Source of the DNA: Candidatus Poribacteria bacterium | GTDB taxonomy: Bacteria > Poribacteria > WGA-4E > UBA9662 | Length of the DNA: 64,000 nucleotides | Direction: 5' to 3' | Assembly: GCA_036339735.1 (NCBI GenBank) | Contig: JAYZAL010000077.1 | Span: forward strand, 1-64,000 | Shown here: piece after piece, positions 8,571 to 58,159 of the stretch | How positions within the stretch are numbered: position 1 is the first letter of the stretch | Layout: the number at the start of each line of letters is the position of its first letter | Notes under the pieces: generated by a model | The model's input: the letters and a program-made list of their open reading frames with translations, nothing else | Database searches by the model: none | What the model was told of the DNA's origin: nothing | Translations under genes and position numbers: made by a program

Positions 8571-9449
8571 ATGAAAATTTACATTGATGGTCAGTATTAT
8601 TCCCAAGAAACAGCGAAGATATCAGTTTTCGATCATGGGTTGCTTTACGGTGATGGTGTATTCGAAGGCATACGTTCCTATAATGGTCGAGTTTTTAAAC
8701 TGAGTGAGCATCTTGAGCGATTGTATGAGTCAGCTAGTGCTATTTTGCTGCAGATACCTATGTCAATTGAAGAAATGGAGCAAGCTGTTCTGGAAACGCT
8801 TCGGACAAATCATCTTCAGGATGCTTATATTCGGCTGGTCGTAACACGTGGTGTCGGAGATTTGGGCCTCGACCCAGATAAATGTAAGCAGCCGAGTGTA
8901 ATAATTATTGCAGATGCTATTACACTCTATCCAGATGAGTTTTACGAAAAAGGCCTAGATATCATCACTGTTCCGAGCCGTCAAAATTTGTCTGAGGCCA
9001 ATAATCCACGGATCAAGTCCTTAAATTATTTAAATAATATTTTGGCAAAAATAGAAGGTAAGCAAGCTGGTGTGGTCGAAGTACTAATGTTGAATGCCGA
9101 CGGTTATGTTGCAGAGTGTTCTGGTGATAATATATTTTACATCAAAAAAGATCAACTGGTTACACCACCAACTCACGTTGGTATCCTAGAAGGTATAACT
9201 CGTAATGCAGTTATTGAGCTTGCTAGAGCCAGAGGTATCAATGTCGTCGAGAAGGTGTTTACTCGCCATGACCTCTACATTTCTGAAGAATGTTTTTTAA
9301 CTGGTACTGCTGCAGAAGTAATTCCGGTGGTCAAAATTGACAATCGACAAATTGGTCAGGGGGTACCAGGCAAAATAACTCGATCCTTAATTCAAGATTT
9401 TCAACACTTGACACAAACGACGGGTACACCCATTAATGACGAAAACTAA
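8571..9449 (+). CDS. ilvE: Branched-chain amino acid aminotransferase (fold IV PLP)
   Basis: 'DHGLLYGDGVFEGIR', 'IKSLNYLNN', 'LEGITR', 'FLTGTAAEV'. Confidence 0.95.
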   Translation: MKIYIDGQYYSQETAKISVFDHGLLYGDGVFEGIRSYNGRVFKLSEHLERLYESASAILLQIPMSIEEMEQAVLETLRTNHLQDAYIRLVVTRGVGDLGLDPDKCKQPSVIIIADAITLYPDEFYEKGLDIITVPSRQNLSEANNPRIKSLNYLNNILAKIEGKQAGVVEVLMLNADGYVAECSGDNIFYIKKDQLVTPPTHVGILEGITRNAVIELARARGINVVEKVFTRHDLYISEECFLTGTAAEVIPVVKIDNRQIGQGVPGKITRSLIQDFQHLTQTTGTPINDEN

Positions 9450-11850
9450 CCTGTTAATAAAAATAGTTCTTCCTGTAATGAAAAATATACTGAATGTTTG
9501 TATCTTTACGGTCAGTTTGCTTGTCATTTTTAGCTCAGTTCTGTGGTCAGAAACCAATAAGCCTGAGGCTGATCAGTCCCCAAAAACAATTAACCCACTG
9601 AGCGTCCAAAGCATTCGATTTGAAGGACTAACAGGTGAAGATGCATTACTTCGCTCAATTGTCCAAACCTCTATCGGAAAAGAAATCGACCCAGATCAAC
9701 TGAGCAAAGATATTAAAAATGTAGCTAAGGATACAGGGCTCTTTTCTAACATTTCCGTGGATGTTGAGCCTTATGAGGAGGGCGGGCTGGAAGTTATTTT
9801 TCGACTAGTGGAAAGTCCAAAAATCGAAGGACTTCAGATTGTTGGTAATGAGAAGATTCGCTACAGTAAAATCAAAGAAGCCATCAACTTCAAGTCTGGT
9901 GAAATTTACACAGATTATCTAGCATGGCAGAACCAGAAACAAATCCTGAAAACTTACCAAGAAAAAGGCTACTATCTCGCAGAAGTCAAAACTGAACTTG
10001 ATCATGACCAAGCGACTAACACAGTCGCTCTGACGTTCAATATTAACGAAGGAAAGCGAATTAAAATTCAGGAGATTAACTTTATTGGTAGGCAAGGGAT
10101 TAGTCAGAAAAAGTTAGCACGCCAACTGAAGACAAAAGTAGGAAAATATTTTGATGAAAATGTATTGGAAGCTGATTTGACCACACTCAGCTTTTTTTAC
10201 CAAGATAATGGCTATGCGCAATCACAGGTCCTTGGCTATGAAAAACGGTTTAATACAGAAAAGACGGGCCTAATGCTAGATATTGAAGTAGATGAAGGTC
10301 CTCAGTATACTGTCGGTGAATACAGAATCAGTATCCGTTTTTCCGAAAAACCAGCCTTCAATGAAGAAAAAATAAGAGAATTAATGAATCCCGCAGAAGG
10401 TGAGGTTTTCAATCGGGGAAAATTTCAGGAATCAATTGACAAAATCACTGAACGTTACCAAGAAGAAGGTTATTTGCTAGTTGAGCTTGACCCTCAACCT
10501 AAATTTGACGAGGATAATCAGCTGGTCGATATTACCTTTAACATTAGCGAAGGTGATGTCATCATCATTGATAGGATCAAAATCAATGGTCTAGTTAAAA
10601 CTAGAGAAAATATTATCAAGCGTGAATTGGATCATCTAAAGATTAAAACTGACGAATTTTTTGACATTCAAAAAATTCGCAAAGCACGCCAGCGCCTATT
10701 TCAGTTGGGTTCTATCAGTAACGTCGATTTTATTCCTAGTGAGGAAGAAGGCCAACGACGAGACTTAATTGTAAATGTTACCGAACGTGATAAAATGGGG
10801 ATGTTCAGCGTTGGCGGTGGGTACGGAAGTGAGGGTGGCTTATTTGGAATGGCCGAAGTTAGCCATTCAAATGTTCTGGGGCGTGCATACCGTGTGCACC
10901 TGAAAGGAGAAGTTGGTACTCGCTATCGGCAAACTCAGGAATTCCGAGTTAACACGCCATGGATTCTAGGTACACCGACTAGGCTAAACTTCAGCTTATA
11001 TAACAATAAACGTCGGCAGTATTACACTCGCTCTGTCTTAACCCGCTACGGTTATGCTGATTGGCCAATTTACGAACGGAAAGGGGCATCAGTTACAATG
11101 GGACGGCCACTACCTCGTGATTATGACTTGTCAGTTCGTTTTCGTAATGACCATACCTTCACCAAAATTGACTACCTGAAAAAAGAAGACCGCGAATATC
11201 GACGTTGGACACGTAGTCTAACCTTCTATTTATCCAAGGATACCCGGGATTACCGCATGAGTCTCAATCACCCAATTAATGGGGCTTACAATACGATATC
11301 CTACGAATATTCCGGCGGACTACTGGGAGCTGATAGCGATTTCATCAAATATACTCTTGATTTAAGTCAATACATTAAAACTTGGAAGAATATGGTTTTG
11401 GCACTGCATCTGTACGGTGGGTATTTACAACCAAAATCTTCTAATCCTGAGAGTGACTATTTCCTATTCTTTGAACGTTACTTCTTGGGTGGGATCGAGA
11501 CGATACGTGGTTATCAAGACTTTGAAATTTTGCCAGTCAACGCCGATGGTGTTCCGTCTTTGGACGGTGGGGACAAAACCTTGTACGGAAATATCGAATA
11601 TAGAATTCCTATCGCACAACAATTTACTGGCGTTGCATTTTTCGACTTCGGCCAAGTTTGGAATAAACCTTGGGGAAAACTTCGGCGCAGTGACTTCAAT
11701 TTCAAGGCTGGAGCTGGAGTTGGGGTCAGAATGGATTTACAAGGTATGTTATTACGGGCTGAATGGGGATATGGGTTCCATAGACAAGACCCAAACGGAA
11801 ATCCAGTCGGAAAAGGTGAATTTCATTTTACTATCGGTCCTAGTTTTTAA
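9436..11850 (+). CDS. bamA: Outer membrane protein assembly factor BamA
   Basis: POTRA repeats, beta-barrel with 'GGIETIRGY', C-terminal 'FHFTIGPSF'; precedes skp-lpxD. The start may be 9478. Confidence 0.95.
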   Translation: MTKTNLLIKIVLPVMKNILNVCIFTVSLLVIFSSVLWSETNKPEADQSPKTINPLSVQSIRFEGLTGEDALLRSIVQTSIGKEIDPDQLSKDIKNVAKDTGLFSNISVDVEPYEEGGLEVIFRLVESPKIEGLQIVGNEKIRYSKIKEAINFKSGEIYTDYLAWQNQKQILKTYQEKGYYLAEVKTELDHDQATNTVALTFNINEGKRIKIQEINFIGRQGISQKKLARQLKTKVGKYFDENVLEADLTTLSFFYQDNGYAQSQVLGYEKRFNTEKTGLMLDIEVDEGPQYTVGEYRISIRFSEKPAFNEEKIRELMNPAEGEVFNRGKFQESIDKITERYQEEGYLLVELDPQPKFDEDNQLVDITFNISEGDVIIIDRIKINGLVKTRENIIKRELDHLKIKTDEFFDIQKIRKARQRLFQLGSISNVDFIPSEEEGQRRDLIVNVTERDKMGMFSVGGGYGSEGGLFGMAEVSHSNVLGRAYRVHLKGEVGTRYRQTQEFRVNTPWILGTPTRLNFSLYNNKRRQYYTRSVLTRYGYADWPIYERKGASVTMGRPLPRDYDLSVRFRNDHTFTKIDYLKKEDREYRRWTRSLTFYLSKDTRDYRMSLNHPINGAYNTISYEYSGGLLGADSDFIKYTLDLSQYIKTWKNMVLALHLYGGYLQPKSSNPESDYFLFFERYFLGGIETIRGYQDFEILPVNADGVPSLDGGDKTLYGNIEYRIPIAQQFTGVAFFDFGQVWNKPWGKLRRSDFNFKAGAGVGVRMDLQGMLLRAEWGYGFHRQDPNGNPVGKGEFHFTIGPSF

Positions 11851-11897: not shown

Positions 11898-12467
11898 GTG
11901 AGAAAATTTTTGAATGGTAGTTGGTGTTTATTGGTGTTAGTAGCTGCTGCATCTTTTGCTAGTGCACAAGAGTTTAGATTAGGCGTCATTGATACACAAC
12001 GTGTAATCGAAGGTTATGAGAAAGCAAAAGAAGCTGATAACGAACTCAAAACCCTAGAAGAACGGTTAAAAAATAGGTTAAAAGGCTTAGAAGACGAGAT
12101 CGTTACTTTAGAAGAACGTTTAACTAAACAAGAACTATTTTTAGATGATGATGCTGTTCGATCGGCCCGACAAGACATTCGTACGAAGCAAGAAGAATAT
12201 CAGCAACGATTGCAAAACGGCCAACAAGCCTTAATCGAAAAACAGAAAGAATTATTAGAGCCAATCATCGAGGAAGTCAAAACTCTGATTGAAGAAATCG
12301 GTGAAAGCGAAAATTATAGTCTAATATTGGATCAACGCCTAACTGTGGGAGCTTACTCAATTCCGGTTGCATTGTACGTTTCATCAAAATATGATCTGAC
12401 TGACCGTATTATCAAAAAATTAAACGATAAATACAACAAACCTGCAGAAGAAACAGAAAAACAGTAA
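11898..12467 (+). CDS. skp: Periplasmic chaperone Skp/OmpH
   Basis: Signal peptide, 'LGVIDTQRV', coiled coil, 'YDLTDRIIKKLN'; lies between bamA and lpxD. Confidence 0.93.
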   Translation: MRKFLNGSWCLLVLVAAASFASAQEFRLGVIDTQRVIEGYEKAKEADNELKTLEERLKNRLKGLEDEIVTLEERLTKQELFLDDDAVRSARQDIRTKQEEYQQRLQNGQQALIEKQKELLEPIIEEVKTLIEEIGESENYSLILDQRLTVGAYSIPVALYVSSKYDLTDRIIKKLNDKYNKPAEETEKQ

Positions 12468-12496: not shown

Positions 12497-13546
12497 ATGA
12501 TTTTGACTTTGGAGCAAATCCATCAAATCGTTGGTGGAGAAATTTTTGGTGATTCACTGTTAGAAATTAGTGGCATTTCGAGTCTCCAAGAAGCTATTTC
12601 TGGACAGATGACATTTCTGGCAAATTCGAAATACCGGTCAGAAGTTGATAAAACAGCGGCTTCTGCTATTATTTTGGGGCAGGATGTCAGCCTAAGTGAT
12701 ATAGCGGTTAAAAATGGAGTTTCGGTTGATGATCCATACTATGCCTTTTTGCAAACCCACCAAGCTTTTGCTAATGCTTCTGCGGAACTACCAACGGGTA
12801 TTGATCCTACCGCTAAAGTCGGTGAAGATGTTATTTTAGATAAAAACGTTTCAATTCAAGCTCATTGTATAATTGAAAACGGTGTCAAAATTGGAGAAGG
12901 CACAATTATTTGGCCAAACACCTACGTTGGACCAAAAGTTGAGATCGGCTCCCGTGTTCGTATTCGTTCCAATGTATCTATCGGGGAACGAGTCAAGATC
13001 GGGGATCGAACTATTATTCAAAATGGCGCGGTGATTGGTAGTGATGGATTTGGTTTTGCAACCTTTCAAGGACAGCATCATAAAATACCTCAGATTGGTA
13101 CTGTAGTTATCGGAGATGATGTTGAGATTGGTGCAAATACTACAATAGACCGTGCGACTTTAACCGAAACATCCACTGTTATCGGTTCCGGAACTAAAAT
13201 TGATAATTTAGTTCAAGTCGCTCATAACGTCAAAATTGGACGGCACTGCCGTATTGCGGCTCAGGTTGGAATTTCAGGTAGCACCCAAATTGGCGACTAC
13301 GTAACAATAGCTGGACAAGTTGGGATTGCTGGGCATTTGACTATCGGCAGTAATAATACAGTTCTAGCCAAGTCTGGTGTGACAAAAAATTTAGCCGATA
13401 ATATGGGTATGGTCTCAGGTTTCCCTGCACGCCTACACAGAGAGGAAATGAAAGATCAAGCTAAAAGTCGGCGGTTAGGTCATTTTCTAGATGAATTACA
13501 AGAATTGAAACAGAAAATGGCAGACATTGACTCTATACTAAACTAG
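12497..13546 (+). CDS. lpxD: UDP-3-O-acyl-glucosamine N-acyltransferase
   Basis: Hexapeptide repeats, 'IGSDGFGF', 'KIPQIG', 'GANTTIDRA', '[12 protein letters not shown]'. Confidence 0.97.
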
Positions 13547-13585: not shown

Positions 13586-14587
13586 ATGTCTGGTTTGCAA
13601 ATTACAGCGATCTCGTTTGTTAAATGGTTTGACTACGTGGCAGTTACACGTCCGATGTTATTGCTACCGGTCTGGACTCAAGTGATATTGGGTTACTACC
13701 ACGCCACTTGGTCTTCTAGGGTACAGTTGGTCGTTTGGTGGCCGCCCGTACGACTTGTTGAAACACTAGTACTATACAGTTGCTTAGCTGGTGGCTGCTA
13801 CATCGTGAATCAAATTTCCGACAGTGAAACTGATTCAGTCAACCAAAAGCTTTATTTGGTAGCCGATGGACACGTCGGGGTTTTTGCTGTTACTATCCAA
13901 GCTCTTTGTCTAATTGTCTGTGGTTTGAGTTGGGCCGTCTGGCGATTCGGAGATAATTTAGCTTTTGTTGTTTTAACTTTCGGCTCGGTCTTATTCGGTC
14001 TGGCTTATTCGCTACCACCTATTCGACTGAAAGGAAAACCAATTCTGGATCTGTTTTCTAATGCAATTGGTTATGGTGGATTTGCTTTCTGGGTGGGTTG
14101 GTCATCTTCGGCAATCTTTTCTTGGTCAGCTGTCGAGCAAGCCTTACCATACGTGCTATGTGTAGCCGCAGCTTTTGTCAATACCACTATTCCTGACATG
14201 GTAGGGGATCGAGCCAGTGGGGATTGGACAACTAGTGTCTGGTTAGGGGAACGTAAAGCAGGTTGGTTAAGCTTAGTTATTTTAGTCGCATCTATTGTAT
14301 GCTCATACTATTTAAAAAGCTGGTTTGCATTTACTACTTCTCTAATTTGTTTACCTTTTTTTGTCCGTATGAATCTGCTGATTGAAACCCAATTGAAGCA
14401 AAAGTTAGATACCAGTCAGCAAAGATATTTGATAACAAAAGCGACCATTCTAACGTCGCGTGTTGGCATTCTAGTCTTTTCAATTATCGTAGGGATACTA
14501 GTACCGATCTATTTAGTACTGTTTGCCTGCACTATTTTCGTATTACGTTGGTATTATGCTGAACGATTCGGAATTAAATATCCATAG
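13586..14587 (+). CDS. UbiA-family membrane prenyltransferase (divergent)
   Basis: N-terminal 'TRP', Asp-rich motifs 'NQISDSETDSVN' and 'IPDMVGD', 'YSLPPIRLKGKP', many TM segments. Confidence 0.85.
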   Translation: MSGLQITAISFVKWFDYVAVTRPMLLLPVWTQVILGYYHATWSSRVQLVVWWPPVRLVETLVLYSCLAGGCYIVNQISDSETDSVNQKLYLVADGHVGVFAVTIQALCLIVCGLSWAVWRFGDNLAFVVLTFGSVLFGLAYSLPPIRLKGKPILDLFSNAIGYGGFAFWVGWSSSAIFSWSAVEQALPYVLCVAAAFVNTTIPDMVGDRASGDWTTSVWLGERKAGWLSLVILVASIVCSYYLKSWFAFTTSLICLPFFVRMNLLIETQLKQKLDTSQQRYLITKATILTSRVGILVFSIIVGILVPIYLVLFACTIFVLRWYYAERFGIKYP

Positions 14588-15452
14588 TAGTCAGGTCAAA
14601 ATACGGGACTTGATCGAGCTTAGCCGCCCTCTAAACGGGCTGCTCGCGTTTGTTTCAGTGTGGATAGGTGCCTATATGTCGGGTGGATCAATCTCTATTC
14701 AGGCGACCTTCTTAGTTGCAACGGCTGCTGTTTTAGCTTTGTCAGCTGGAAACAGCTTAAATGACTATTGTGACGTCGAAATAGACCGAATTAATAAACC
14801 TGAGCGGCCTATTCCTTCAGGGCGGATTAGTCGAAGGCAAGCATTATTATTTTCCATACTGTTACTGGGACTGAGTGTTGTGATCGGTTTTCAAGTGAAT
14901 TCAGGTTCTCTGATAACTATTGTTTCTGTCTGTTGGTTACTCTCTATATATGCTTTCTGGTTGAAGCGCTTACCACTAATCGGTAATTTAGTCGTTGGAA
15001 TCTTGACTGCACTAACCTTCGTCGCCGGTGGAATAGCAAATGAAGTAGTTCAAGGTACTCTTCCGCTATCTGTTTTTGCATTTCTATTTACAACTGCTAG
15101 AGAGATTGTAAAAGACATGGAAGACCAGGTCGGGGACCAGGCCGTATTTGCCAAGACTTTACCTTTAATTTTAGGTGAGAAATCAGCTGTGTGGGTCGTT
15201 TTATGTTTGATTGCAAGTGGAATTGCGTTTAGTCCAGTCCCATACTTAATTTACGGGTATTCTGGGCTGTATCTTTTTATAATGATCTTTGGAGTCGACT
15301 TAGTTATGGCCTATTTGGGCATTCGTTTATTTCTAAAACCAAGCCAATCCAATTGTGCTAAGATCCAGAAGTGGATGAAATGGAATATTTTTATTGGGTT
15401 ACTAGCCGTCTGTTTAGGTAAACCTTCCCGGTTACTTCCCGTTGGCGTATGA
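14556..15452 (+). CDS. Digeranylgeranylglyceryl phosphate (DGGGP) synthase-like UbiA prenyltransferase
   Basis: 'LSRPLN', 'GNSLNDYCDVEIDRINKPERPIPSGRIS', 'LKRLPLIGNLVV', 'AREIVKDMEDQVGD' match the archaeal DGGGPS pattern. The start is uncertain (14523, 14556 or later). Confidence 0.85.
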   Translation: MLNDSELNIHSSQVKIRDLIELSRPLNGLLAFVSVWIGAYMSGGSISIQATFLVATAAVLALSAGNSLNDYCDVEIDRINKPERPIPSGRISRRQALLFSILLLGLSVVIGFQVNSGSLITIVSVCWLLSIYAFWLKRLPLIGNLVVGILTALTFVAGGIANEVVQGTLPLSVFAFLFTTAREIVKDMEDQVGDQAVFAKTLPLILGEKSAVWVVLCLIASGIAFSPVPYLIYGYSGLYLFIMIFGVDLVMAYLGIRLFLKPSQSNCAKIQKWMKWNIFIGLLAVCLGKPSRLLPVGV

Positions 15453-15618
15453 ATTCAATTTTTCGAACCAAAATTCATGGTAATGAAAATAACATTCTGT
15501 GTTTATTTTCGTTCTTCTGATTCTACTAAAGAAAAGATAGATTGATTCAAATGGAAGCGATCAAATCTGATTTTGCAAAGTTATATTTTTTTAGAATAAT
15601 AAAAAAAGGTACTGTTAC

Positions 15619-15837
15619 ATGATTCATATTTATGACGAGCTCTGTAGTTATTGTGGTTCGTGCATCGCGGTGTGCCCTGAAAATATTATTGATTTAATTG
15701 ATCTCCATTTAGAGATTGATCAACCTAAGTGTACACACTGTGCCAAGTGTATAAAAGGTTGTCCCGTCGGTGCTTTGGCCATGGAACATCGTGATAAAAT
15801 TTACTATCCTGAATACGAAGGTCGAGGTTTATTCTAG
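15619..15837 (+). CDS. 2x[4Fe-4S] dicluster ferredoxin
   Basis: [12 protein letters not shown] and [12 protein letters not shown]. Its TAG stop overlaps the GTG start of the reductase by one base. Confidence 0.93.
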
Positions 15838-17030
15838 TGATTCATTCCGAATATGATGTCATTGTCGTGGGTGCTGGTCCTGGTGGTTCCATAGCTGCAA
15901 AAGTTGCAGCTTCTAACGGGTTTCGTACTTTAGTCTTAGAAAAAAGGCAAGAGATCGGCACCCCCGTTCGCTGAGCAGAGGGAATTAGCACAGAGGCTCT
16001 GTGCGCATTTATTCAACCTGACCCTAGTTGGGTTTCACAACCGATCAACGGAGCTAGAATTTTTTCTCCAAACGAAACGCCTGTTCAGATGGATGTAGCT
16101 GATGCCGGTTACGTTCTGGAACGTAAAGTTTTTGATCGAACCTTAACGGAAATGGCAGGTAACGAAGGAGCCGATATAATTGTTAAAGCTCGAGCCACTA
16201 ATGTAACTAAAGATGGTAAGGGATCTGTCAATGGAATAACCTTTCGATATGCTGGACGAGATTATACGTCTAAAGCTAAAGTTGTTATTGCTGCCGATGG
16301 TATCGAATCCAAGGTCGGTAGATGGGCAGGTATTGATACTACACATGATCTTCGTGATATTGATGTTTGTGCTCAGTACTTAATCTCTAAAATTGACATT
16401 GAACCTGAGTATTGTGATTTTTATGTTGGTCGAGAAATTGCTCCTCGAGGATATATCTGGGTCTTTCCCAAAGGTCCGGATATCGCTAATGTTGGTGTCG
16501 GAATTGGAGGAACAGTATCGGGGAAAGGTGGTAAATTGGCTATTGACTATCTAAACGAGTTTGTTAAACGAAAATTTCCAGATGGAAAAATTCTAGGCCA
16601 AGTGGTAGGTGCAGTGCCCGTTGGGGACAGTTTGCCTCAATTAGTAGCTGATGGAATCCTCATAATTGGGGATGCTGCACACCACAGTGACCCAATTTCA
16701 GGTGGCGGAATTGCCAATGCTATGTACTCTGGCATGTTTGCCGCAGAGACTGCCGTTGATTGCCTAAACAAAGGAGACGTTTCCGCACAAGCCTTAAAGG
16801 TTTATGAAGAACGCTGGGATAAAGAAGTCGGTAAGCATTTCAAGCGTGTTTGCAGGATTCGAGATGAAGCTCTGAAATTTAGCGATGAAATGTTCGACCG
16901 TTGTGCGGCTGTTCTCAATCGAATGCCACCTGAAAAAGTCAATATGCCAACCATTTTTAAAACTGTACTAAAACATCAACCTAGGTTGCTTCTCGAACTT
17001 CGCCACTTAATCTTAGCCGGTTGGGTTTAA
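15837..17030 (+). CDS. Geranylgeranyl/digeranylgeranylglycerophospholipid reductase, probable selenoprotein (Sec46)
   Basis: GTG 15837 is in frame with the 16089 ORF and gives [18 protein letters not shown]...[11 protein letters not shown][TGA 15972-15974]AEGIS. Later motifs are 'IAADG', '[10 protein letters not shown]', 'IGDAA...PISGGGI'. 397 aa if the TGA is decoded. Confidence 0.9.
15988..16004 (+). promoter_or_regulatory. Candidate bacterial SECIS hairpin of the reductase
   Basis: GCACAGA-GGC-TCTGTGC is a perfect 7-bp stem. Its G-led loop starts 20 nt after the in-frame TGA. Confidence 0.7.
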
Positions 17031-17048
17031 AGTACTCAGCTTACAATC

Positions 17049-17780
17049 ATGACCATAATTGAGCAACTTGAGTCCATTATTGGACAATACCGAGCAGGAT
17101 ATCTGGTATTAGTGGATCCTGACCGGATCAAACTAAAAGAAATTCCTAGCTTTGCTCAACGAGCCCAATCTGCTGGTGTTGATGGAGTTCTGCTGGGTGG
17201 CAGTTTTCTGACTAACGATCTAAGTATTATTGCTGAAACCTTGAAAAAGTCTACGGATCTGCCCATAATTTTGTTTCCAGGTTCAGCGATGCAAGTTACC
17301 CCACATGCTGATGCTATTCTTTTCATGAGTTTACTTAGTGGTCGGAATGCCAACTATTTGATTGGAGAACAAGTTAAAGCCGCTCCAATGATCCAACGAG
17401 TTGGACTTGAAACTATTTCCACCGGTTATATACTGATTGATGGTGGTCAGCAGACAGCTGTCAGTTTCATTAGTAATACAACACCAATCCCTAATGACAA
17501 AGCAGAAATCGCTTGGGCCCATGCGCTTGCTGCTCAGTACCTTGGCATGAAGTTGATCTATCTAGAAGCTGGTAGTGGTGCCAAAAAACCTGTGCCGGAT
17601 CAAATAATCCATTCTGTTAAGAAACAAGTGACCGTCCCGATTATCGTTGGTGGGGGAATTCGATCGCCTGAAGTGGCTCGAAAAAAGGTTGCCGCCGGAG
17701 CCCAATTTGTTGTCACGGGAAATGTGATTGAGCAAGATCCATCATTGATGGCAGCCTTCGCCGACGCAATCCATAGTTAA
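17049..17780 (+). CDS. Geranylgeranylglyceryl phosphate (GGGP) synthase, group II
   Basis: 'LVDPD', 'LLGGS', 'ILFPG', 'FMSLLSGRNANYLIGEQV', 'YLEAGSGA', 'IVGGGIR', 'VVTGN' are the phosphoglycerol geranylgeranyltransferase TIM-barrel motifs. Confidence 0.93.
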   Translation: MTIIEQLESIIGQYRAGYLVLVDPDRIKLKEIPSFAQRAQSAGVDGVLLGGSFLTNDLSIIAETLKKSTDLPIILFPGSAMQVTPHADAILFMSLLSGRNANYLIGEQVKAAPMIQRVGLETISTGYILIDGGQQTAVSFISNTTPIPNDKAEIAWAHALAAQYLGMKLIYLEAGSGAKKPVPDQIIHSVKKQVTVPIIVGGGIRSPEVARKKVAAGAQFVVTGNVIEQDPSLMAAFADAIHS

Positions 17781-19868: not shown

Positions 19869-20678
19869 ATGAGTACTCAAGAGATCAAAGTGCCACCTTT
19901 GTCATCTGACGAACTGGATCTAGCGTGTCAGACATTATCAGAGGTTGGATACGTAACTTTTGAACAGGCTATACCATTAGAGATAGTTGAAAAAATCAAG
20001 GATGCATTCGAAGCTGGTCATAATACAGGTCAACAAGATACTGATTTCCTAACTTATCCTTTCTTGGATCCTCGTATCATAAATAACCCTATAGCCATCT
20101 CAATAATTGAAAAAATCATGGGAACGGGTTTTTTTTCTTCCCTTCCGTACGGCTTTAACTCCACACAGCGCTCGTCTCGATACTACAAAAATAGTCTTAA
20201 ACAGTGGATTCACCGAGATAGCGGGCACCTCTTTCCTCAAATGAGAGCTGCATTACCTGTAACCAAGATTGTGGTCAATGTTACTCTCACTGATTTTACT
20301 ATCGAAAATGGGTGCACAGAAATTTGGCCGGGGTCTCACTTAATAATTGACCCTATCAAATCTCCAACAACAGAAGAAGAAAAATTGTTCCAGAACTATC
20401 ATGTTTGTAGCGAAGAAAGAGGTGCAGAGTTACCATCTGTCCGGATGGTAATGCCTGCGGGATCTGTCGTGGTTCGTGATATGAGGTGTTGGCACCGAGC
20501 CATGCCCAATTATACCGATCGCACTCGCACTATGATTGCTATGGTTTATTTCAGTCGTATCCATAATGCATTAGGAGACCATGGTATTTTTAGGACCAAA
20601 ATTTCAAATGACACTTGGCAACACATCCCCGAACGCGCTCAACATATCTACCGCTTCCACCCAATCAGTTACAAATAG
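19869..20678 (+). CDS. Phytanoyl-CoA dioxygenase (PhyH) family Fe(II)/2OG enzyme
   Basis: 'IHRD' (HxD), 'ENGCTEIWPGSH', 'WHRA', 'RTM'. Confidence 0.88.
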   Translation: MSTQEIKVPPLSSDELDLACQTLSEVGYVTFEQAIPLEIVEKIKDAFEAGHNTGQQDTDFLTYPFLDPRIINNPIAISIIEKIMGTGFFSSLPYGFNSTQRSSRYYKNSLKQWIHRDSGHLFPQMRAALPVTKIVVNVTLTDFTIENGCTEIWPGSHLIIDPIKSPTTEEEKLFQNYHVCSEERGAELPSVRMVMPAGSVVVRDMRCWHRAMPNYTDRTRTMIAMVYFSRIHNALGDHGIFRTKISNDTWQHIPERAQHIYRFHPISYK

Positions 20679-53932: not shown

Positions 53933-55105
53933 CTATTCGAATGCGGCAGGTTCAACTACCTGTCGCATATCCCAGATTAGGATCTGTCCATTGGTTGTTC
54001 CAGTCGCCAAATAAAACAAATCATCTTGCTGACTAAATCTGAGAGAAAATGAACAGTAGAGGTCGAACAAGCCTAATTTTCGTGTAGATCCAAATCGTCG
54101 AAACGTTTTTTCTTCCATCGACCAGACGTAAATCTTGTCTGAAGTCTGACACAAGAAAAAAGCTTTGTTCGGGCCAAAAGACAGATTCCCACCTCGGCTA
54201 GAAACTTGGTTTTTAATTGGTGATACTTTTGATAAATCCCAACTTAATATGGATTGCTCTGCTCCAGAAGCGATCAGATAATTATCCGCTAATGATATTG
54301 AACCAATCTTCTCTTGGCCAGCCAATAACGTTTTCTCTAATTGTCCATTAGCTAAGCTCCAAAATCGGACAGTACCATCCCAAGAACCAGAGACCAACTG
54401 CTCTCCATTTTGAAAAAAATCTAGTGCGGTTACATTATCGGTATGCCCTCGAAAAGTATAGACTAATTTTCCCGTAATAATGTTCCAAAGAAAGATATTT
54501 CCATTTAGGGTAGCAATAGCTAGTAAAATAGGTTGATTAGGACAGAAAGCGAGAGTGGTTACCCACTCTCCCCGAGGTGAAGTTGTAAAAAAATCATCTT
54601 CATCATCCTCAAAATCTGTCTCTTTGTCGTCCGTCGATGGTTCAAAAGCAACTAAAGTACGTTCTATAATCCCGCTCTGTGGGTCTAAAATTTGAACTTG
54701 GCCATTGTAAGTACCATAAGCTACAGCTGCAGAATCAGGGCTCGCTACGACGGCAGTTATTAAATCTTCATTATTATCTTGAGTTGACCAACTAACTGTC
54801 CATTCCGAATTATTTATGGAGCCAGGTGGTAGAGGGTTATCTATATCATTTTGGCTAACATTTCCTTCTTCCCAAAGACTAATTTGGTACCCCGTTGCAA
54901 TTAACAAATAAGCGCAGTCGTGTGAAAATGCTAAATCCGTTATCGGTGTACCGCTCGGAATATTCAAAATTTGTACGGGATCAGATGGAAGTTGGGGGAA
55001 ATTAGTTTCAGCAACCACTCTCGTGGGTAAATAGCTGATAGCAAGATAAACCATTACATAATAGAATAAATTCAACAGCTGAAGACACTTAGTTTTTTCC
55101 GTCAT
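53933..55105 (-). CDS. WD40-repeat protein
   Basis: 'GHTDNVTALDFFQNGEQLVSGSWDGTVRFW' and several degenerate WD repeats; N-terminal hydrophobic segment. Confidence 0.85.
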   Translation of the reverse strand: MTEKTKCLQLLNLFYYVMVYLAISYLPTRVVAETNFPQLPSDPVQILNIPSGTPITDLAFSHDCAYLLIATGYQISLWEEGNVSQNDIDNPLPPGSINNSEWTVSWSTQDNNEDLITAVVASPDSAAVAYGTYNGQVQILDPQSGIIERTLVAFEPSTDDKETDFEDDEDDFFTTSPRGEWVTTLAFCPNQPILLAIATLNGNIFLWNIITGKLVYTFRGHTDNVTALDFFQNGEQLVSGSWDGTVRFWSLANGQLEKTLLAGQEKIGSISLADNYLIASGAEQSILSWDLSKVSPIKNQVSSRGGNLSFGPNKAFFLCQTSDKIYVWSMEEKTFRRFGSTRKLGLFDLYCSFSLRFSQQDDLFYLATGTTNGQILIWDMRQVVEPAAFE

Positions 55106-55967
55106 TGACTTTTTTTGATGTCTGTTCGGCTACAATAATTCGGATACGATATTCGTTAGCCAATTGAACCAGTTCTGATGGTCGAATTAGCAAGACGCGT
55201 TTGGCTTCAACAGCCAACACCTTTGCTCCTGATGTTTTCATGATTTCTAATGTTTGTCGTCCAATAGTTGGAGTATCTATCCGAAAATCGTGGTTTGTGG
55301 CCGCAGTTTTGATTACTGTGAATCCCTTACCTGCTAAATTACCAGCCCGAATAATAGCAGAGTCTGTTCCTTCGATTGCTTCAACAGCTAATACCATCCT
55401 ATTTTTTATTACTACTGTTTGACCGATATCTAAATCAGCTATTGACCGAGCAAGGGACAAACCATAGGTAATATCTAACCATTCTAATTGAGTCGGTTGT
55501 CTTTTTGTCAAAACACCAGCTGTTGGCAAAAAATCATCTAGATATTGTATTTGAGGTAGTACTCGAATACCTTCTGCTTCAAAATGATTGAGAACACTAG
55601 CCAAAATTGCTTGATCTCCACCGTGCCGGCTGCGAGCGAGAATTTTCAAAGCTGTCGTATCAAAGTGTAGTGGTTTCAATAATCTTTTTTTTTCTACTTT
55701 GCCGATAATTGAAATTTCTTTTACATTTCGCTTTTGAAATGTTTTTGTGACTTTTTCGACTTGACCTACTCCAAGAGGGAAAACAGAGATTGTTGTAGGC
55801 AACCTCTGTTGTGCTAAGCGCGCTGAAGATTTAGTGATGGGAATGAACACAACGGGTCGTTCTGGAAAGTGTTTGAGTACTGATTCAACCAATAAAAAAG
55901 GGAGTTCACCATCCCCAGCAACAATACCGAAAGGACTATTCGTTGGTTGATGGCATTGAGTGGCCAT
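55089..55967 (-). CDS. lpxI: UDP-2,3-diacylglucosamine pyrophosphatase LpxI
   Basis: 'GIVAGDGELP', 'DIGQTVV', 'AVEAIEGTD..I.R', 'D.R.DTPTIG..T'; downstream of lpxA. Confidence 0.92.
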   Translation of the reverse strand: MATQCHQPTNSPFGIVAGDGELPFLLVESVLKHFPERPVVFIPITKSSARLAQQRLPTTISVFPLGVGQVEKVTKTFQKRNVKEISIIGKVEKKRLLKPLHFDTTALKILARSRHGGDQAILASVLNHFEAEGIRVLPQIQYLDDFLPTAGVLTKRQPTQLEWLDITYGLSLARSIADLDIGQTVVIKNRMVLAVEAIEGTDSAIIRAGNLAGKGFTVIKTAATNHDFRIDTPTIGRQTLEIMKTSGAKVLAVEAKRVLLIRPSELVQLANEYRIRIIVAEQTSKKVNDGKN

Positions 55968-56043: not shown

Positions 56044-56835
56044 TTAAAGTGCAATACCCCTATCAGATGACTGAAGGAAATTTAGGAGATAGTTAACTTC
56101 ATCATTGGGGGGACAGTCTTCTTTAACTTTTTCTATGGCCTGTGATAGCGAATTTTGAGATCGGAACAATATAGAAAAAACTTTTTTTAGTAAGCTAATA
56201 GTGTCGGGAGATATCTCGGCCATCGGATGATTGCTGGCTGTCTGCCGGCCTATCAAATTCAACCCTCGTATACGAGCCGGATGTCCATCCGCGACAGTAA
56301 ATGGAGGTATGTCTTTAACGAATTTGGAGCAAGCACCAGCCATAGCACACTTACCAATTCGTACGAAAGGGTGAATTGCCGCATGTGCTCCCAACCGAAC
56401 CTGATCCTCTACTACAACATGTCCTCCCAAAGTAGCAAAATTAGCCATGATAGTTCGATTTCCAACCGATGCATCATGGGCAATGTTGACCCAGTTCATC
56501 AATAAATTATCGTCCCCAATAACTGTAGCCGAATTTTCACTGGTAGCGCGTGAAACCGATACATACTCACGCAATATATTACGATTACCGATCAAGGTAT
56601 AACTACGTTCATTTTGAGATTTCAGGTCTTTAGAGGGATTACCCAGCGTACAACCAAAAAAAATTTGACACCCTTCACCAATATGGGTGTATTGGCATAC
56701 CTGAACGTGTGGCCCAATGATCGTCTCGCGACCAACCTGGACATCCGATTCTATAATAGAAAACGGTCCAACCTCAACACAATTATCGAGCTCAGCTTTT
56801 GGAGAAACAATAGCGGTCGGGTGAATTTTTGTCAT
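56044..56835 (-). CDS. lpxA: Acyl-ACP--UDP-N-acetylglucosamine O-acyltransferase
   Basis: 'IHPTAIV', hexapeptide repeats, 'LREYV', 'IAHD', 'LGGHV', 'KDIPPF', 'GLNLIG'. Confidence 0.95.
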   Translation of the reverse strand: MTKIHPTAIVSPKAELDNCVEVGPFSIIESDVQVGRETIIGPHVQVCQYTHIGEGCQIFFGCTLGNPSKDLKSQNERSYTLIGNRNILREYVSVSRATSENSATVIGDDNLLMNWVNIAHDASVGNRTIMANFATLGGHVVVEDQVRLGAHAAIHPFVRIGKCAMAGACSKFVKDIPPFTVADGHPARIRGLNLIGRQTASNHPMAEISPDTISLLKKVFSILFRSQNSLSQAIEKVKEDCPPNDEVNYLLNFLQSSDRGIAL

Positions 56836-56893: not shown

Positions 56894-58159
56894 TTATTCG
56901 GGTGGTGAACCAATCATAATTGACAAGATACCTTCACTAGCGATAGAGTCCCCTACGTAGGCTTTACCTGCGAGTTTCACAAAGTTCCGGCGTTTGCGAA
57001 CAACTTCTACTTCTAGTCTCAACTGATCACCAGGAAGAACCGGGCGGCGAAATTTTGCCTCATCAATGGAAGCGAAGAACCCAATCTGGTTTTCGGTGTT
57101 TGTCTCTTGTAAGACTAGCCAAGCACCTAGTTGAGCTAATGCCTCCATCTGTAATACTCCAGGCATAACTGGTTCTTGTGGGAAATGTCCTTGGAAAAAC
57201 TGTTCATTATAAGAGAGATTCTTAATACCAGTCGCCGATTTACCTGTCTGGAAGCTTACAACTCTATCTACCATACACATTGGGAATCGGTGTGGTAGTT
57301 GTTGATAAATTTCCTTGGCTTCCACAGGTTTCTGTTTGTTAATCAAGCCTTGGTCATCCAATAACTTGACCAATTCAGCATGTAACTGATGGCCTGATTT
57401 AACGGCTATAACATGAGCCAGTAATGGTTGACCGATCACCGATAAATCGCCGATCAAATCTAAAATCTTATGCCGGGCAAACTCATCAGAAAAACGTAAA
57501 TCACACTTTGGTACACCATCCTCTTTGACTACAACTACATTACTCTCGCTTGCCCCTTTGCCAATACCCAGCTGCAATAACGCCTCGATTTCGCTGGACA
57601 AACAAAAGCTTCTGGCTGGTGCAAGCTGTTCCAAATAAAGTTCTGGTGTGATATCAAATGTCGCAATTTGGGTCTGGATCTTTGGATGATCGTAGACAAA
57701 TGTGACACGGAAGTTATCGGCAGGCAGTAACATCAACTGCTTGTCCCCTTGGTCAATAGCAAGCGGAGAATTAATCTTAACAACCGATCGGGGTATATCT
57801 TGTTTCAACACTCCAACTTGGGCGATCTGAATCGCATACGCTGAAGCACTACCATCCAGTGCGGGTGGCTCTGGAGCATCAAGTTGCAATAGCGCATTAT
57901 CAATATGCATACCAGCTAGAGCAGACAAGATATGCTCTACACTATTAACAGTAATAGATCCATCACCAATACTCGTACAACGTGGTAGGTCGTCCACCGC
58001 GTTTTCAGCGCAAACGGCGACGGACTGGTTGCCTAAGTCGATTCTTTGAAAGACTATTCCGTGGTTGACTGGTGCTGGACATATTTTGAGATTGACGGCC
58101 AAACCTCGCATGAGGCCTTTACCACTAATGGTTATTTCATCTTTAATTGTCTGTTGCAA
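56894..58159 (-). CDS. lpxC-fabZ: Bifunctional LpxC/FabZ fusion
   Basis: LpxC 'QQTI', 'VEHILSAL', 'P.LDGSA', 'RHKILDLIGDL', then FabZ 'LPHRFP...VDR', 'FQGHFP..PVMPGVLQMEALAQ'. Confidence 0.95.
   Translation of the reverse strand: MQQTIKDEITISGKGLMRGLAVNLKICPAPVNHGIVFQRIDLGNQSVAVCAENAVDDLPRCTSIGDGSITVNSVEHILSALAGMHIDNALLQLDAPEPPALDGSASAYAIQIAQVGVLKQDIPRSVVKINSPLAIDQGDKQLMLLPADNFRVTFVYDHPKIQTQIATFDITPELYLEQLAPARSFCLSSEIEALLQLGIGKGASESNVVVVKEDGVPKCDLRFSDEFARHKILDLIGDLSVIGQPLLAHVIAVKSGHQLHAELVKLLDDQGLINKQKPVEAKEIYQQLPHRFPMCMVDRVVSFQTGKSATGIKNLSYNEQFFQGHFPQEPVMPGVLQMEALAQLGAWLVLQETNTENQIGFFASIDEAKFRRPVLPGDQLRLEVEVVRKRRNFVKLAGKAYVGDSIASEGILSIMIGSPPE

Follow-up and report, generated by a model that had tools for sequence, protein, structure and literature searches.

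A putative archaeal-type ether-lipid gene cluster behind bamA-skp-lpxD in a Poribacterium, with a geranylgeranyl reductase predicted to contain selenocysteine

The analysed stretch of DNA (64,000 nucleotides, contig JAYZAL010000077.1 of the Candidatus Poribacteria bacterium assembly GCA_036339735.1; hereafter the window) carries at positions 13586-17780 five genes on the + strand. They encode UbiA-1 (a divergent UbiA-family prenyltransferase), a UbiA prenyltransferase of the digeranylgeranylglyceryl phosphate synthase (DGGGPS) type, a 2×[4Fe-4S] ferredoxin, a geranylgeranyl reductase (GGR), and a group II-like geranylgeranylglyceryl phosphate synthase (GGGPS). The string is read here, with a probability of about 0.63, as a Poribacteria form of the 'archaeal-type' pathway for isoprenoid glycerol-ether lipids known from bacteria, located behind bamA-skp-lpxD and equipped with a GGR in which UGA would encode selenocysteine (Sec). 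The five co-oriented lipid genes of the original prediction were all recovered with their coordinates, strand and family matches, and its gene-level reading is supported in every element. The source genome is a draft (92% complete; 34 tRNAs by ARAGORN). The features of the cluster were as follows.

13586-14587, + strand: UbiA-1, divergent UbiA-family prenyltransferase (PF01040, 69 bits; cut-off 34.2)
TTG 14523 or ATG 14556 to 15452, + strand: DGGGPS-type UbiA prenyltransferase, start uncertain (PF01040, 164.7 bits)
15619-15837, + strand: dicluster 2×[4Fe-4S] ferredoxin, 72 aa, two CxxCxxCxxxCP motifs (Fer4_7, 48.9 bits)
15837-17030, + strand: GGR, digeranylgeranylglycerophospholipid reductase type, 397 codons (PF22578, 96.1 bits; TIGR02032, 226.6 bits, cut-off 158.8)
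15972-15974, + strand: in-frame TGA at the position of the active-site Cys, predicted selenocysteine codon (GGR codon 46)
15978-16014, + strand: hairpin resembling a selenocysteine insertion sequence (SECIS), inside the coding sequence; apical stem 15988-15994 with 15998-16004, loop GGC
17049-17780, + strand: GGGPS, group II-like (PF01884, 159.6 bits; TIGR01769, 226.4 bits, cut-off 161.55; NF003198, 295.2 bits, cut-off 247)

The GGGPS scored above the curated cut-offs of two family models (TIGR01769 and NF003198), and its score against the PcrB-type model NF003197 was 36 bits. Among solved structures, it matched 4jej (E 1.9e-55) and 4mm1 (8.1e-52), which we take to be group II GGGPS, and 2f6u (3.4e-8) and the heptaprenyl PcrB 3vzx (3.6e-8), which we take to be group I. 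The predicted enzyme belongs to the GGGPS family, is group II-like and is distant from PcrB.

The DGGGPS-type gene overlaps the end of UbiA-1 and terminates in a TGA acting as a stop. Its product was aligned over the full length with the solved DGGGPS 6m31 (E 5.7e-38), including the NDxxDxxxD and DxxxD-type motifs; in the same structure search, chlorophyll synthase gave 4e-15 and 4-hydroxybenzoate octaprenyltransferase 1.9e-5. The best DGGGPS model scored 230 bits, and the NCBIfam models for chlorophyll, quinone and heme prenyltransferases scored 90.7 (ChlG), 61.4 (UbiA) and 54.6 bits (CyoE). A UbiA tree was built from 80 rows (77 homologues from named genome records, the two UbiA proteins of the window and a heme-O-synthase-like paralogue); it came from a quick search on the best 80 loci only, three of which were dropped by the open reading frame (ORF) filter. 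The tree ended in a three-way polytomy: the window protein and its Poribacteria orthologue formed a branch of their own, outside the sampled clade of the Fibrobacteres-Chlorobi-Bacteroidetes (FCB) type (29 rows) and beside an archaeal clade (47 rows, 46 labelled Methanobacteriota and one without a label). UbiA-1 and the heme-O-synthase-like paralogue were placed on branches of length 8-10. Grouping with quinone, heme or chlorophyll prenyltransferases, named beforehand as the counter-evidence to a DGGGPS-like protein at 14556, was not seen in the 6m31 match, the model scores or the tree. The protein groups with DGGGPS, and its activity is predicted.

The GGR was aligned end to end with the Thermoplasma GGR 3oz2 (E 2.1e-80), and the YxWxFP motif ('GYIWVFP') and the GGG motif were present. 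It scored 304.9 bits against a lipid-reductase model, 145.1 against a BchP/ChlP-type model and 71.6 against a MenJ-type model. The ferredoxin gene follows the DGGGPS-type gene after a gap of 166 bases, and its TAG stop shares one base with the GTG start of the GGR. Ferredoxin-GGR fusions are found in other Poribacteria: Fer4-bearing fusions made up 28 of the 120 closest GGR relatives (each at least 455 aa), and the free ferredoxin was 60% identical to the N-terminal domain of one of them (P0099, Poribacteria). In the available text of PMC10821996, the GGR of Methanosarcina acetivorans depends on a neighbouring ferredoxin. Because of the one-base overlap, the fusions and the M. acetivorans precedent, the ferredoxin is presumed to be the dedicated electron donor to the GGR; the natural fusions back this partnership.

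The GGR is whole only when the TGA is read through; plain ORF calling returned a 313-aa fragment starting at 16089, and the GxGxxG FAD-binding motif is encoded upstream of the TGA. Codon 46 was aligned without gaps to residue 45 of 3oz2. According to the available text of PMC6309074, Cys45 of the Thermoplasma acidophilum enzyme (TaGGR) and Cys47 of the Sulfolobus acidocaldarius enzyme (SaGGR) are the active-site cysteine behind the flavin, and Cys47 is termed essential for catalysis in that of PMC10821996. Among the 120 closest database proteins, Cys was found at the TGA position in all 63 that cover it. The remaining 57 start downstream of it, lack the FAD-binding N-terminus and are annotated as proteins of 283-346 aa (one of 398 aa); we regard these short entries as a systematic mis-annotation caused by the in-frame TGA.

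The same gene was searched for in 151 genomes of the phylum (22 genera) with stops read through (E <= 1e-40). Matches were obtained in 41 genomes (17 genera), and 33 were full-length. Exactly one TGA was present in 31 of the 33, which were 65-100% identical and all from the window's order; one carried an added TAG (G112). Ten genomes had matches counted as TGA-free: eight outside the window's order (seven full or nearly full-length, one covering residues 6-240) and two partial ones inside it (G010 and G073). The GGR of G010 (C2:1265197-1266383) was in two pieces, the N-terminal one with two TGA and one TAG, and that of G112 (C136:31529-32716) had the TAG besides the TGA; both may reflect gene decay or sequencing error. 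The TGA was the same codon in 29 of 30 readable loci, in the context P-[VL]-R-TGA-A-E, a pattern that was unmatched in L124.

In RNA-library contigs of two other studies (X1 record 5 and X4 record 28), the TGA was unchanged. It is thus kept in contigs from other samples, and an assembly artefact is therefore ruled out. The RNA-library data were assembled contigs only, with no cover at, e.g., 15319-15525 and none bridging lpxD and UbiA-1, and such gaps are uninformative. TGA is also the normal stop of the DGGGPS-type gene 520 bases upstream, so the case is one of site-specific recoding and not of a changed genetic code.

The SECIS-like hairpin begins 13 nt after the TGA. It was examined in an alignment of 27 distinct, related sequences with a structure derived from one of them: 92.6% of the cells pair, as against 24.3-61.9% with the partner slid. 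Double-sided changes were seen at 3 of 14 pairs (CG/UA, AU/GC and CG/AU/UA), and the first loop base, G, was invariant. Several of the compensatory changes alter the encoded amino acids (e.g., GAG-GCT to GCG-TCG), so selection on the RNA is indicated.

For the selenium machinery, selA (510.5 bits), the selB wing domain (76.2 bits) and selD (359 bits) were found in the genome. The selD gene (C70:27434-28552) itself contains a TGA in 'SCAG-TGA-ASK', at what we take to be the catalytic Cys/Sec position of the family, and its product is a predicted selenoprotein. A tRNA-Sec with a UCA anticodon was detected in all five closed relatives that carry a TGA-GGR (72.8-78.3 bits). The TGA at the Cys site, its conservation, the hairpin, and selA/selB/selD strongly support the suspected selenium dependence of the reduction module, and the GGR TGA is very probably read as selenocysteine.

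A GGR tree was built with FastTree from the 120 closest relatives and two Ignavibacteria GGRs; the method is fast, the sampling limited, and the truncated rows lack the N-terminal columns. The 58 TGA-bearing or truncated rows formed one clade (support 98) nested within Cys-type Poribacteria GGRs, and the ferredoxin-fused forms made up another Poribacteria clade. A clade of Methanocellales and Methanohalobium was sister to all Poribacteria GGRs. The topology is consistent with one switch from Cys to Sec and with a module whose affinity is archaeal and Methanosarcinia-like.

The UbiA-1 translation retains the two Asp-rich motifs (NQISDSETD and DMVGD). No NCBIfam model scored above 57 bits for this protein, and the sole PDB match was chlorophyll synthase (2.9e-9). 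Its subfamily comprised 79 cluster representatives at E <= 1e-30, rising to 377 at E <= 1e-10, with generic source names, and only generic UbiA clusters were returned from a protein atlas. Across the phylum, UbiA-1 was detected in 40 of the 151 genomes (16 genera, every class sampled), a few kb from GGGPS. It is probably an active, conserved prenyltransferase of the cluster. A role as quinone or heme prenyltransferase was rejected because separate genes of the UbiA type (C16, 196 bits) and the heme-O-synthase-like type (C45) are present. In P0253 (691 aa, from a 'Candidatus Poribacteria bacterium' metagenome-assembled genome [MAG]), residues 15-313 form a UbiA-1-like domain joined to a family-2 glycosyltransferase that resembles PgaC, HpnB and HpnI; the protein had been considered as a UbiA-1-DGGGPS fusion, which was rejected when the partner proved to be this glycosyltransferase.

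In the phylum sample, GGGPS was found in 121 of the 151 genomes and the DGGGPS-type gene in 122 (21 genera each). The tallies by genus were nearly the same, the same 20 genomes were among those listed without a match, and both genes were nearly missing in genus g8 (1/20). The complete string bamA-skp-lpxD-UbiA1-DGGGPS-Fdx-GGR-GGGPS was intact in two other Poribacteria records (L018 and L022, 42-98% identity). The nine-gene order recurs, at 83-98% identity, in the closest public locus, which comes from a marine MAG named 'Candidatus Poribacteria', and the named relatives of GGR and UbiA-1 were Poribacteria too. The genes of a g9 genome run lpxD-DGGGPS-SpoU methyltransferase-GGGPS-grpE; a divergent GGR, considered for the DGGGPS-GGGPS gap of g9 genomes, was rejected because the gap gene encodes the SpoU methyltransferase and not a reductase. 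On gene order, the window appears as a fuller form of a phylum-wide cluster whose attachment to lpxD is conserved.

Related arrangements were noted outside the phylum. In 14 Ignavibacteria/Bacteroidota loci of the 80 fetched (L041, L045, L048, L049, L054, L059, L060, L066, L072, L075, L082, L083, L094 and L096), an Omp85/BamA-like gene, with a product 20-24% identical to the BamA of the window, is directly followed on the same strand by a DGGGPS homologue. In three Ignavibacteriaceae loci (L029, L065 and L091), a divergently oriented Fdx-GGR pair adjoins DGGGPS.

The ether-lipid genes stand directly 3' of bamA-skp-lpxD, with 39 bases between the end of lpxD and UbiA-1. A promoter and terminator scan was no better than shuffles (27 vs 21.6 and 11 vs 7.3, respectively) and is uninformative on operon boundaries. 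The envelope genes of the window were as follows.

9436-11850, + strand: bamA, first gene of the conserved string (TIGR03303, 415.4 bits; cut-off 297.15)
11898-12467, + strand: skp/ompH-like periplasmic chaperone gene (PF03938 OmpH, 100 bits; no NCBIfam match at E <= 1e-15)
12497-13546, + strand: lpxD (PF04613 LpxD, 62.5 bits, plus hexapeptide repeats)
55089-55967: lpxI-like gene, weak match (111 bits; cut-off 400)
56044-56835: lpxA, elsewhere in the window
56894-58159, - strand: lpxC-fabZ fusion, a single 420-aa protein (NF009667, 411 bits, below the cut-off of 465)

The lipid A background claimed for the organism was thus recovered: LpxD, BamA, OmpH/Skp, LpxA and LpxC-FabZ were matched, and LpxI-like weakly. 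The lpxD gene lies approximately 43 kb away from lpxC-fabZ and lpxA, and the common lpxD-fabZ-lpxA order is not followed. The lpxI-like gene is adjoined by a gene for a WD40 beta-propeller protein (53933-55105, - strand); eukaryote-like repeat proteins of this sort have been reported from Poribacteria. Two genes past GGGPS, a gene of the phytanoyl-CoA dioxygenase family (PhyH) was recognised at 19869-20678 (63.7 bits), and L022 showed no such gene. PhyH genes may be common throughout Poribacteria, so that the adjacency may be due to chance.

The original prediction had found no glycerol-1-phosphate dehydrogenase (G1PDH), CarS or geranylgeranyl diphosphate (GGPP) synthase in the window, which was correct, and the check was widened to the whole genome. 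A bacterial CdsA is present and adjoins dxr of the methylerythritol phosphate (MEP) pathway, together with two CDP-alcohol phosphatidyltransferases and a PlsC-type acyltransferase elsewhere in the genome. PlsY was not found in this incomplete genome, and some control bacteria also lack it. The PlsC-type domain is part of a very large multidomain protein (C100:50962-51348; open frame of 1411 aa), which is kept in 4/4 family relatives at 1410-1475 aa. A 2026 preprint, as far as its text was available, reports an ElbD-like alkyl-ether-lipid enzyme in Poribacteria and treats only fatty-alkyl routes; the 1411-aa protein may be that enzyme, in which case the organism would have two unrelated ether-lipid routes. 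Homologues of Tes are reported from 10 of 29 Poribacteria MAGs in the available text of PMC11868695. Of 14 radical-SAM matches in the genome, the six largest were scanned, and none of them was recognisable as Tes-like: they were MtaB, HemW, MiaB, an HemN-like protein, a generic SPASM/twitch protein and an anaerobic sulfatase maturase.

Small residues before the DDxxD motif of prenyl synthases are typical of longer-chain products, and Trp at -5 is a short-chain signature. A second prenyl synthase with Trp at -5 was found in 4/4 family relatives, from which we infer the supply of GGPP. Two G1PDH-like paralogues, 69% identical to each other, are unlinked to the operon. In the structure search, they matched G1PDHs at approximately 1e-22 and GldA at approximately 1e-11, the best match being 3ce9, an uncharacterised 'glycerol dehydrogenase' (5e-35). 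They are probably not dedicated operon partners: their distribution does not follow the operon, and the neighbouring genes are of the fatty-acid-desaturase family and, beside one paralogue, of the PhyH family (119 bits; C87:20385-21086).

In the proposed pathway, GGGPS would join a C20 prenyl diphosphate to glycerol phosphate, with predicted substrate and stereochemistry, and the DGGGPS-type enzyme would add the second chain; for both enzymes the family assignment is shown. The chains would then be saturated by the GGR, fed by the translationally coupled 2×[4Fe-4S] ferredoxin; the pairing is shown by fusion, and the substrate is predicted. Head groups would be added by the bacterial CdsA and the CDP-alcohol phosphatidyltransferases, whose use for ether lipids is suggested by the E. 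coli work cited in the available text of PMC7852524. In the window's order, the active-site Cys of the GGR would be replaced by UGA-encoded selenocysteine, making saturation selenium-dependent. UbiA-1 would be an old, conserved member of the cluster with its catalytic motifs intact. With these genes and the lipid A background, the organism may have a mixed membrane of ether and ester lipids.

Several results weigh against this reading. The DGGGPS and GGR assignments stay below archaeal equivalog cut-offs: the DGGGPS-type protein scored 230.4 vs 269 (NF009523), 221.9 vs 296 (NF009521) and 178.1 vs 353 (NF009522), and it is therefore named 'DGGGPS-type', and the GGR scored 304.9 vs 780 (NF041160, the Thermoplasmatales equivalog model) and 179.4 vs 580 (NF041080). 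A GGR of this clade was missing at E <= 1e-40 from 110 of the 151 genomes; by this query, chain saturation does not extend to the whole phylum. The stability of the hairpin is unremarkable (z = -1.54; 15 of 200 shuffles fold as well), its count of three double-sided changes was reached by 163 of 500 shuffles, and its structure came from one of the aligned sequences. No tRNA-Sec was found in the draft with the Rfam model, ARAGORN, or blastn with the tRNA-Sec of five relatives; the Rfam model gave only tRNA-Ser/Leu-like matches below the cut-off. A relaxed ARAGORN call beside selA (C6:5283-5371) was rejected as AT-rich and without an Rfam match. CarS was not found (PF01864 without a match at E <= 0.01; genome 92% complete), the single trans-prenyl synthase of the draft has small residues before DDxxD, and the short-chain-type synthase of the relatives is missing in the draft, even as a fragment. 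The best model for the G1PDH-like proteins, NF002022, was matched at 114 bits vs a cut-off of 413, and in the g6 genomes GGGPS was present in 31/38 and a G1PDH-like gene in 0/38; in g5, the counts were 4/4 for GGR and 0/4 for G1PDH-like genes.

An unlikely alternative that still deserves weight keeps all enzymes as named and has them make a minor or special-purpose lipid instead of a main membrane constituent; this isoprenoid ether lipid could be glycosylated or associated with the outer membrane, and linked to envelope biogenesis. The alternative draws on the position of the cluster, which lies directly behind bamA-skp-lpxD in the window, L018 and L022 and behind lpxD in the g9 genome, and on the 14 of 80 Ignavibacteria/Bacteroidota loci with DGGGPS directly after an Omp85/BamA-like gene, but gene neighbourhood alone gives no localisation. 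The glycosyltransferase fusion P0253 would suit a glycosylated product and is a single case. The prenyl synthase of the draft resembles the long-chain type by the chain-length rule given above. For the PcrB product of Bacillus subtilis, heptaprenylglyceryl phosphate, the available text of PMC6431249 states that evidence of entry into phospholipids is lacking, but the GGGPS of the window is far from PcrB (36 bits to NF003197; ~3.6e-8 to 3vzx), and CdsA and head-group transferases are available for phospholipids. Another isoprenoid end product for the UbiA enzymes and the GGR (for instance a reduced quinone, a polyprenol or a pigment side chain), with only GGGPS forming an ether bond and no diether made, is improbable. 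The sub-threshold scores of the DGGGPS-like protein, the lack of an assignable acceptor for UbiA-1, and the promiscuity of GGR-family enzymes, which include quinone and prenyl reductases (available text of PMC10821996), would allow it. They are answered by the separate canonical UbiA-type (C16) and heme-O-synthase-like (C45) genes, the almost perfect co-occurrence of DGGGPS and GGGPS over 151 genomes, the full-length match to a real DGGGPS as the best structure match, and GGR scores that favour the lipid-reductase model over the MenJ and BchP/ChlP types.

That the TGA is a true stop, leaving a pseudogene, a split gene (a 45-aa peptide and an enzyme without the FAD-binding N-terminus) or an assembly error, is very improbable. 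Public annotations do call only the downstream part (57/120 relatives), tRNA-Sec was missed in the draft, and the GGRs of G010 and G112 look damaged. Against this, the frame of approximately 397 codons is open bar one TGA in 31 genomes, down to 65% identity, with conserved residues flanking the TGA and the same TGA in contigs from other samples; a truncated product would be without the GxGxxG motif, and the clade possesses the complete Sec machinery. Many Poribacteria inhabit sponges in which archaea are also present, and the operon has no clear G1PDH partner. A reverse or salvage role, in which archaeal lipids, environmental or derived from archaea of the sponge, are dismantled or reused, is on these grounds conceivable and was raised by Coleman et al. 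for FCB bacteria without G1PDH (available text of PMC6431249). It is the most far-fetched of the readings considered: a dedicated reductase with its own ferredoxin, operon coupling to envelope genes and the free-living marine lineages fit synthesis better, and Cloacimonetes homologues make ether lipids in E. coli (available text of PMC7852524).

An extension of the preferred ether-lipid reading is rather doubtful as a whole. It holds that Poribacteria use archaeol-type diethers phylum-wide in envelope biogenesis, that their genes are co-inherited and probably co-expressed with bamA-skp-lpxD to make a lipid for, or coordinated with, the outer membrane, and that one order has made saturation selenium-dependent with the first selenoenzyme of membrane-lipid biosynthesis. 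If so, these lipids, and with them any archaeol signal of Poribacteria-rich sponges or seawater, would depend on selenium supply.

Bacterial archaeal-type lipid genes are the main genomic argument for a leaky lipid divide and have so far been framed as an FCB trait. A GGGPS/DGGGPS pair in approximately 80% of the sampled genomes of an unrelated phylum of ecological importance, including sponge symbionts and free-living marine cells, widens this picture and would make Poribacteria a second, independent lineage for testing mixed or heterochiral membranes. Archaeol-type lipids of sponges and seawater are usually credited to archaea, an attribution that would need checking where Poribacteria are abundant. 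With the predicted Sec-GGR, the few bacterial selenoprotein families would come to include a flavin-dependent lipid reductase, and the natural Cys/Sec pair of GGRs could serve as a probe of the 'redox-modulating' role of the cysteine. In two phyla, DGGGPS-type genes repeatedly occur linked to Omp85/BamA genes, a pattern that can be tested.

The literature searches returned nothing relevant that pairs Poribacteria with geranylgeranylglyceryl, geranylgeranyl or isoprenoid ether lipids, and no relevant selenoprotein GGR or Poribacteria selenoprotein in print. The known bacterial set is that of Cloacimonetes and other FCB bacteria, for which GGGPS, DGGGPS and GGR have been published (Villanueva et al., ISME J 2021, PMC7852524, and PMC6431249, available text). 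Poribacteria had zero occurrences in the main texts of these two papers, whose supplements could list more phyla. The earlier comparison with FCB bacteria stood for the GGGPS/DGGGPS pair, which is of the published kind, and failed for the host, a Poribacterium, which NCBI places under 'Bacteria candidate phyla', outside the FCB group.

As in the genome studied here, GGGPS and DGGGPS homologues are co-localised in the Cloacimonetes/FCB set, the GGR is close to euryarchaeal ones, no CarS was found and a bacterial CdsA is assumed to substitute, and the background is one of fatty acids and lipid A (PMC7852524, available text); the glycerol stereochemistry is unsettled there as here. The window differs in its Poribacteria host, in the separate branch of its DGGGPS-type protein, in having the reductase and ferredoxin inside the operon, in the predicted selenoprotein GGR, in the extra UbiA-family gene and in the attachment to bamA-skp-lpxD. 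The PcrB/AraM system of B. subtilis has a GGGPS-family enzyme that makes an ether bond to glycerol phosphate, as predicted for the window enzyme, and a G1PDH homologue, to which the G1PDH-like genes correspond (PMC6431249, available text). Unlike that system, the genome studied here has an enzyme far from PcrB, an added DGGGPS-type transferase and reductase, and G1PDH-like genes that are unlinked and not co-distributed.

Among reductases, the M. acetivorans GGR likewise has a small ferredoxin encoded next to it (Isobe/Ogawa et al. 2014, via PMC10821996, available text, and the reference list of PMC7852524), whereas in the window the ferredoxin gene is upstream and translationally coupled, and in other Poribacteria it is fused. 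The Methanocellales/Methanohalobium clade has Cys at the active site in 7/7 rows, where the window has TGA. The T. acidophilum enzyme (3oz2) shares with the window GGR the full-length alignment and the GxGxxG, YxWxFP and GGG motifs, and the position of its Cys45 and of SaGGR Cys47 (3atq/4opc) is TGA codon 46 in the window. Read as Sec, this codon would preserve the chemistry in selenium form, and the GGR would count as a variant of the lipid-type reductases instead of an ordinary representative. In classical bacterial selenoproteins such as the Sec-containing SelD and formate dehydrogenase, Sec occupies the place of a catalytic Cys. Like these, the window GGR has UGA where homologues have a redox-active Cys, a hairpin at a fixed distance downstream within the coding sequence, selA/selB/selD in the genome, and tRNA-Sec in the clade; unlike them, it is predicted to be a flavin-dependent isoprenoid reductase of lipid biosynthesis. 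On these comparisons, the cluster is of a known kind, with four departures: its phylum, its near-universality there, its anchoring to outer-membrane biogenesis genes, and its predicted selenocysteine reductase.

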